Sequence record: PZ386961.1
Direction: 5' to 3' (one strand)
From: a phage
Length of the DNA stretch: 64,000 bases
Each line of letters starts with the position of its first letter. Position 1 is the stretch's first letter. The notes beneath the pieces are model-generated. The model saw only the letters and a program-made list of their open reading frames with translations. It searched no databases and was not told the origin of the DNA. The translations under genes were made by a program, and so were the position numbers. Shown here piece after piece: positions 42,112 to 42,529 of this stretch.

Positions 42112-42139
42112 TTGACATAGAAAATTTGGTGAGTATACT
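42112..42139 (+). promoter_or_regulatory. near-consensus sigma70 promoter (TTGACA-16-TATACT)
   Basis: Hexamers at 42112-42117 and 42134-42139; sits directly upstream of GG-pentamer repeat arrays. Confidence 0.6.
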
Positions 42140-42169
42140 GAGCAGCATAAACCGACGGGTACTCACCAG

Positions 42170-42470
42170 CATCACTTAAGAGTCTTTTAAAAGGGTTTTT
42201 AAGTGATGTCCGGTCGGGTGAGGTAGGGTTAAGTATTGTCCGGTACGGTAGGGTAAAGTACGGTACGGTAAGGTAAAGTAGGGTATGGGTAGTTAGTCTC
42301 AGCTACATTAAAATGAGACTTACCTTTTTAAAAGGTCTTTAAAGAGGGTCTTTTAATGAGGTCTGGCGCGGTAGGGTCTGGTCTTGTCCGGTCGGGTATG
42401 GCATGGTGTTGTGAGGTATGGGTGGATGGTAGTAGCCACGTTAAAAATCTACCAAGTTTCTAAAGAGTCT
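42170..42470 (+). repeat. two about 130-bp units, each an AT-rich stem-loop followed by about 14 period-5 GG-containing pentamers
   Basis: Unit 1 from about 42170 (CACTTAAGAG...TTAAGTG hairpin then TCCGG TCGGG TGAGG...); unit 2 from about 42330 (TTAAAAG...CTTTTAA hairpin then GGTCT GGCGC GGTAG...). Confidence 0.7.
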
Positions 42471-42529
42471 TCTGTTGAGGGTTCTTTACAAACAACTTAA
42501 CAATCAACTAAAGTGTGGAGCTAAATGCT

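Follow-up and report, generated by a model that had tools for sequence, protein, structure and literature searches.

[quoted passage not shown] According to the authors, a VIPR locus comprises genes for Vipr, for an accessory protein (vap) and for vrRNAs, which are made of YNNGG repeats followed by a conserved 3' tail; the number of repeats per vrRNA is given as 9-16 in the first preprint and as up to 30 in the second, and the tail of SUSP1-clade vrRNAs folds into a pseudoknot. Vipr itself, at about 20 kDa, was described as a small homologue of RAMP proteins that has an RRM core, a G-loop and a thumb; it assembles at one protomer per repeat into a right-handed helical filament. There the three GGY bases are flipped out into pockets of the protein, where H17, R138, D177, W178 and R179 sequester them, and the full set of residues contacting GGY or the skipped base is listed as H17, K33, E71, M72, R138, D177, W178 and R179. 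Pairing with double-stranded DNA is left to the NN bases, with every third target base skipped (xNN), and the resulting R-loop triplex silences transcription. For SUSP1 the experimental evidence includes vrRNAs of ~100 nt detected by sRNA-seq, their co-purification with Vipr and repression of the target, and the guides of the SUSP1 clade were found to be aimed mostly at a satellite phage in E. coli genomes. A Vipr identity of 90% was used as the clade cut-off, and it has been proposed that VIPR is older than CRISPR (bioRxiv 10.64898/2026.04.26.720920 and.720927).

Among better known systems, the Cas7/Csm3 filament of Class 1 CRISPR-Cas offers a close parallel, with the same RAMP fold and glycine-rich loop, one protomer for each fixed increment of RNA and a thumb domain that flips bases periodically. 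The two differ in that three bases out of every 5 nt are sequestered in VIPR, against one flipped base out of every 6 nt in CRISPR, and in that the VIPR guide is non-contiguous, is encoded by phages and comes with neither a CRISPR repeat-spacer array nor cas1/cas2.

The DNA analysed here (the window) is a stretch of 64,000 nt (PZ386961.1) from a Felix O1-like myovirus (Felixounavirus), with 92-94% identity to wV8, LMP34 and other relatives. Attention had been drawn to one of its intervals, bounded by a DNA ligase gene and a 48-aa ORF on one side and by a 195-aa ORF on the other, in which a sequence-only reading had noticed a promoter followed by stem-loops and arrays of pentamers with GG at a fixed position. 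In our assessment this interval very probably (probability about 0.93) represents the upstream half of a VIPR locus of type II that belongs to the SUSP1 clade, and carries vrRNA guide genes. Systems of this kind are already known, and the window phage falls inside the described SUSP1 clade. The sequence-only reading overlooked two further units at 43588-43860 as well as the adjacent vipr and vap genes, and the complete gene order is P1 - vrRNA1 - vrRNA2 - vipr - vap1 - terminator - vrRNA3 - vrRNA4 (Table 1). The interval itself is called noncoding because the ORFs that overlap it are all of 38 aa or less, as the sequence-only reading had stated. With the SUSP1 locus it shares the gene order, the GGYNN grammar, the two tail types, a Vipr and a Vap that are 96.9% and 99.3% identical, the 1-nt skip code and the target, a satellite-like island in E. 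coli. It differs from it in having two vrRNAs upstream and two downstream, where SUSP1 has one upstream and three downstream, in its guide (NN) sequences, which are not those of SUSP1, and in the 17 repeats of vrRNA1, just above the 9-16 range of the first preprint.

Table 1. Coordinates of the features of the VIPR locus in the window, of the matched satellite island and of vrRNA units in relatives devoid of vipr.
Feature	Position	Strand	Description
Promoter P1, TTGACA-16-TATACT	42112..42139	+	11/12 consensus positions; precedes vrRNA1, vrRNA2 and vipr-vap
9-bp perfect inverted repeat TGGTGAGTA / TACTCACCA	42127..42168 (arms 42127-42135 / 42160-42168)	.	Straddles the P1 -10 and the early transcribed region
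Head H1, AU-rich, 10-bp outer stem CATCACTTAA / TTAAGTGATG	42170..42208	+	Conserved; directly before repeat tract 1
vrRNA1	42202..42324	+	17 GGYNN repeats (42202-42286) and 3' tail hairpin, possible pseudoknot (42287-42324)
Head H2, homologue of H1	42323..42361	+	Contains a T-run after the vrRNA1 tail hairpin
vrRNA2	42360..42453	+	12 GGYNN repeats (42360-42419) and tail (42420-42453), GGTAG/CTACC stem
vipr, 195 aa, RAMP/Cas7-like	42530..43117	+	Assigned by profile, identity, model and array association
vap1 accessory gene, 146 aa	43120..43560	+	Counterpart of the second SUSP1 locus gene (99.3% identity); phrog_5926, function unassigned there
Intrinsic terminator after vap1	43569..43594	+	T-run extends into head H2b
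vrRNA3	43625..43725	+	13 GGYNN repeats (43625-43689) and tail hairpin (43690-43725), compensatory variant AATCGGA/TTCGATT
vrRNA4	43757..43860	+	14 GGYNN repeats (43757-43826) and tail (43827-43860), GGCAG/CTGCC stem
Promoter P2, TTGACA-17-TATTTT (43880-43908)	43862..43908	+	For the downstream 127-aa gene; VIPR locus boundary
Satellite island	L148 1-10400; L149 4000-14400; L150; L151 2266-13762
Orphan vrRNA units	L153 13759-13818 (Felix O1, minus strand); L004 2500-2700; L005 2500-2830 (UAB_Phi87)

The phasing of the GG pentamers is real and well beyond chance, since 11-12 GG per 100 nt fall in one 5-nt phase at four places in the window, two of them in the interval and two at 43590-43850, whereas elsewhere in the 64 kb, on either strand, the phased count never exceeds 6 per 100 nt. 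The earlier description of two units with about 14 pentamers each was right as to the two arrays but not as to the counts, which are 17 and 12. A search for the unit in related phages, which had been suggested as a check, yielded 62 distinct arrays with 785 pentamers in 28 related loci, and from these the consensus D-G-Y-N-N was derived, so that the fixed GG holds but the conserved motif is D-G-Y and not GG alone. Position 1 is G in 77% of the 785 pentamers and never C, position 2 is G in 97% (A in 1%), position 3 is T in 89% and C in 10%, that is, a pyrimidine in 99%, and positions 4-5 are unconstrained. The distance from head to tail is constant modulo 5 for each combination of head and tail, with 10-17 pentamers and length changes in steps of 5 only; copy number and NN sequence differ among phages with near-identical flanks, and the number of units per genome goes from one (Felix O1) to five among the related loci, in which vipr and vap1, sitting between the arrays, form an optional cassette. 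An Rfam search returned snoRNA matches at chance level only (E > 2, bit scores well under the gathering thresholds). Resemblances to Chi, KOPS, the BREX GGTAAG site, the RfaH ops element, boxA and Shine-Dalgarno sequences within single arrays were rejected and are treated as by-products of the GGTNN composition, since none is conserved across arrays.

Each repeat tract is preceded by a conserved AU-rich head of ~38 nt (42170-42208, 42323-42361, 43588-43626 and 43726-43763). The two head types are homologous, both with tandem AAGAG(G)GTCTTT half-repeats, and they find no description in the text of the VIPR preprint; they may serve in processing or as a 5' leader. That these heads are sigma-70 promoters was considered and rejected, the candidate -10 having no A at position 2. 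A stem-loop had been reported before each array; the first (42170-42208) stands as head H1, but the second (42292-42323) turned out to be the 3' tail of unit 1.

The protein encoded by the 195-aa ORF provides a second line of evidence. The profile of its family retrieves PDB 36pp_D, the 'SUSP1 Vipr protein', with E = 3.2e-80, and the identity to SUSP1 Vipr (PDB 36pp) of 96.9% exceeds the 90% clade cut-off. An AF2 model of the window protein (pLDDT 95) has structural matches only to RAMPs of the Csm3/Cas7 type, the Foldseek match to Csm3 having E = 2.5e-5 and a TM of about 0.5, and the RAMP-like C-terminal glycine-rich loop of 12 letters with which the family ends is present in it. Of the RNA-contact residues, H17, E71, M72, R138, C173, D177, W178 and R179 were found by script and K33 is present as read by eye from the translation; position 175 is V in the window protein versus the T175 named in the preprint. 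Neither Pfam nor PHROGs assigned a function to Vipr, to Vap, whose fold is predicted to be a DNA-binding one, or to their neighbours, and no Pfam domain was found for the Vipr family, which has at least 519 matches among 555 candidates.

The association between this family and the arrays was also recovered from the arrays themselves. IMG/VR was scanned with the pattern (GGTNN)6GGT and all ORFs near arrays were then clustered; besides simple microsatellites, at least 65 degenerate GGTNN-array loci were found on unrelated viral contigs, with about 10-15 repeats per array and often several arrays in tandem. One family of ~190 aa, which includes the window 195-aa ORF, adjoins the arrays at 40 of these 65 loci among the matches listed and is co-oriented with the G-rich strand in all 40 of these listed loci, and the array usually starts at most 35 nt from the stop codon of the family gene. 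On some of these other contigs the architecture varies: tracts of 10-14 repeats are punctuated by GGCTAATGG, or follow one another directly, the phase shifting by one base at each GGCAG, and some arrays start at the vipr stop codon itself or reach the ribosome-binding site of the next gene (contigs L031 6113-6498, L147 4599-5047, L137 2560-2860, L146 2943-3283 and L120 8571-8926). These variants are probably 'staggered' arrays of other VIPR types.

That the units end in a structured RNA tail is indicated by covariation. The 7-bp tail helix is paired at 100% in 13 distinct tails, with three pairs changed on both sides (AGTCTCA/TGAGACT versus AATCGGA/TCCGATT or TTCGATT), and the tail stem of the other type is likewise compensatory (GGCAG/CTGCC versus GGTAG/CTACC); the tail changes include G-U pairs. 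None of 500 shuffles attained the score of the 7-bp helix in these 13 tails, and in a control in which the partners were slid by 1-3 columns pairing was found in at most 36% of cells. The 4-bp pseudoknot helix GUAG/CUAC is invariant in the 13-tail alignment and hence gives no covariation signal for or against.

The repeat tracts behave differently from the tails, and this bears on the suggestion that the arrays work as RNA or single-stranded DNA structure, either as a run of two-tetrad G-quadruplexes or as a structured 5' leader that controls the downstream gene. The GG-N3 spacing formally fits two-tetrad G-quadruplexes and the arrays of the interval lie between a strong promoter and a gene; but the tracts are no stabler than shuffled sequence (z = 0.24, 0.51, 0.45 and -1.0), and G4-aware folding of the four units with ViennaRNA predicts no G-quadruplex in any minimum-energy structure. 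Moreover, the guanines lie in protein pockets in the published structures, a G-quadruplex accounts neither for the strictness of the phase nor for the pyrimidine conserved at position 3 nor for the target information of NN, and units 3 and 4 sit between a terminator and the next promoter. Both the quadruplex and the leader proposals are thus considered highly improbable.

No more credit can be given to the view that the arrays act as double-stranded DNA, be it a phased binding array, a replication origin, an R-loop origin or a partition site. The locus is near replication genes (ligase, polymerase), the head elements contain palindromes, the non-template strand downstream of the promoter is G-rich, and one GenBank annotator's guess was 'StbAB binding site'. 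However, the G-rich strand is the vipr sense strand in 40 of 40 loci among the matches listed, the tails show compensatory changes, G-U pairs included, and this view would account neither for the target matches nor for the presence of vipr and vap as an optional cassette. An R-loop or iteron origin was dropped, given that the GC-skew turn is at ~36 kb, away from the locus, and tracks gene orientation. From the earlier list of possible roles, the phased protein-binding array survives as one protein per pentamer, on RNA according to the preprints; no evidence was found for a protein sponge or an origin-like dsDNA element, and the NN positions carry target information. The sRNA option pointed in the right direction, in view of the ~100-nt vrRNAs of SUSP1 that the preprints report from sRNA-seq.

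A regulatory RNA with a similar spacing is the trp leader bound by TRAP, in which 11 (G/U)AG triplets separated by spacers of 2-3 nt are wrapped around a protein ring. Both are single-stranded RNAs with a conserved triplet every 5 nt and one protein subunit for each; the VIPR triplet is GGY rather than GAG/UAG, the binder is a RAMP filament rather than the TRAP beta-wheel, and in VIPR the spacer bases carry information. A TRAP-like ring was rejected for the window arrays, in which the triplet is GGY, A occupies position 2 in only 1% of pentamers and the repeat number of 10-17 varies and so implies no fixed ring size; no TrpBP domain was found in 10 neighbouring proteins.

If the arrays are guides in the VIPR manner, their NN bases should give a gapped match to some target, and such a match was found. 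The exact xNN pattern taken from vrRNA3 matched one IMG/VR provirus, L148; exact sub-guide scans of IMG/VR for vr1, vr2 and vr4 gave no match, as an exact pattern misses targets with the one to three mismatches that occur naturally. With a skip of 1 nt, 24 of the 62 Felixounavirus guides reach an NN match of at least 80% on the 11-kb L148, against none of the 62 with skips of 0, 2 or 3; shuffling the order of the repeats, reversing the guides or replacing the provirus by an equal length of the phage's own DNA each also gave 0/62. All four window guides match the satellite island at 82-88%, although vr1 and vr4 reach only 79% once the first and the last repeat, which are conserved, are included in the guide. 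The best satellite match of vr1 comprises 27/32 NN bases, that of vr3 23/26 with 11 consecutive dinucleotides perfect; vr2 has its target in the satellite baseplate gene (21/24) and vr4 in the satellite variant L151 (23/28). The targets of the window guides are at syntenic sites in four island variants (L148 and E. coli ECONIH4, AH04 and AR_0369); the four predicted targets occupy L148 2265-2311, 8086-8120 and 873-910 and L151 7418-7458. The skipped base corresponds to codon position 1 for vr2 and to codon position 2 for vr4, not to the wobble position. There is no self-targeting, the best guide match within the window being at most 73%, equal to that of shuffled guides.

The target island is ~11.5 kb long and is inserted in the E. 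coli chromosome in the DUF72 (yecE) gene beside yecD-aspS. It encodes a serine recombinase together with homologues of two phage proteins, the tape measure protein (27% identity) and the baseplate protein (82% identity), and is devoid of vipr and vap. It carries its own vrRNA gene (L148 380-620, minus strand), with a TTGACG-17-TATAAT promoter, 11-13 repeats, a phage-type tail and a terminator; the satellite has the other tail type, and a BLAST search of E. coli genomes with the T1-tail/H2-head module gave no match. The site of the phage that is homologous to the vr2 target (56984-57018) lies within a baseplate-associated gene on the minus strand (56714-57478) and matches vr2 at only 16/24 NN bases, versus 21/24 in the satellite, so that vr2 appears to discriminate the satellite allele from the phage's own.

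Most likely, judging from the locus and its matches, the phage uses its vrRNAs and the adjacent Vipr to silence this parasitic satellite in E. coli. Transcription from P1 with read-through would give a precursor, from which trimming at the AU-rich heads would release vrRNAs of ~100 nt, each unit thus producing GGYNN repeats capped by a structured 3' tail. One Vipr protomer would occupy each repeat in a helical filament with the GGY bases flipped into its pockets, presenting the NN dinucleotides for pairing with double-stranded DNA in a read-two, skip-one fashion, and the R-loop triplex so formed would block transcription of the target. The purpose would be repression of a satellite that parasitises the phage and steals its tail components. 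In this scheme the repeat grammar, gene association, protein identity, tail pairing and target code come from the present computations, and the filament, base flipping, triplex R-loop, silencing and ~100-nt mature RNAs are taken from the preprints on the 97%-identical SUSP1 system.

It could be argued instead that the arrays are decaying remnants, slippage-prone pentamer microsatellites of a once-active system with no present function, given that copy number and NN are hypervariable, that relatives lacking vipr still have arrays and that the G of position 1 is substituted in 23% of repeats. Against this, vipr and vap are both intact, at 97-99% identity to SUSP1 genes for which activity has been shown by experiment, and GGY is conserved while NN is free; moreover, all four guides match one element above controls. 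This explanation is accordingly regarded as very unlikely, if slightly less so than those based on nucleic acid structure or duplex DNA. The locus is another natural member of the SUSP1 clade and adds little alone; what is added by the analysis is an independent computational replication, with negative controls, of the gapped 1-nt skip code, together with four natural guide-target pairs that are new, a case in which the guide separates the satellite baseplate gene from the 82%-identical copy of the phage, and the vipr-less relatives that retain vrRNA units.

Concerning these relatives, roughly half of the Felixounavirus genomes, Felix O1 included, are without vipr and vap yet retain P1 and one or two vrRNA units; the intergenic module occurs in ~231 phage records and a Felixounavirus-type Vipr in only ~118. 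In the whole genome of Felix O1 no Vipr or Vap homologue was found (best tblastn E = 0.33). The arrays of vipr-less phages nevertheless keep the GGY phasing and the tails intact (G2 93%, Y3 97%), and 3 of 11 orphan guides match the satellite at 80% or more. Orphan vrRNAs in phages are not mentioned in the text of the preprint, in which the word "orphan" is absent, and the retention of apparently intact units by vipr-less relatives may be new. These orphans can be likened to the vrRNA of the satellite, which, being itself vipr-less, must borrow Vipr in trans; by analogy, they might borrow Vipr from a co-infecting vipr-positive relative or serve as decoys that titrate the Vipr of a rival, although a function of either sort is rather doubtful. 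Within this comparison, two records labelled as phages of other hosts, GU169904.1 (Staphylococcus phage SA1, 90676-93646) and MG065664.1 (Campylobacter phage A132), are 88-95% identical to the Felixounavirus locus, and are suggested to be mislabelled or contaminated because of the enterobacterial Felixounavirus DNA they contain.

As regards the promoters, P1 was found exactly where the sequence-only reading had placed it, and it is kept in all the relatives examined, namely 22 IMG/VR contigs, Felix O1, UAB_Phi87 and AYO145A, being already annotated as a promoter in the last three. The -35 of P2 is flanked by a 12-bp perfect inverted repeat (43862-43873 / 43895-43906). The inverted repeats overlapping P1 and P2 may be operators. 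A gene for a Cro/C1-type HTH protein is present nearby, at 44513-44842. Finally, the GC skew of the window changes sign at ~36 kb and again at ~48 kb; these flips track the switch in gene orientation (divergent early promoters) and mark nothing at the VIPR locus.
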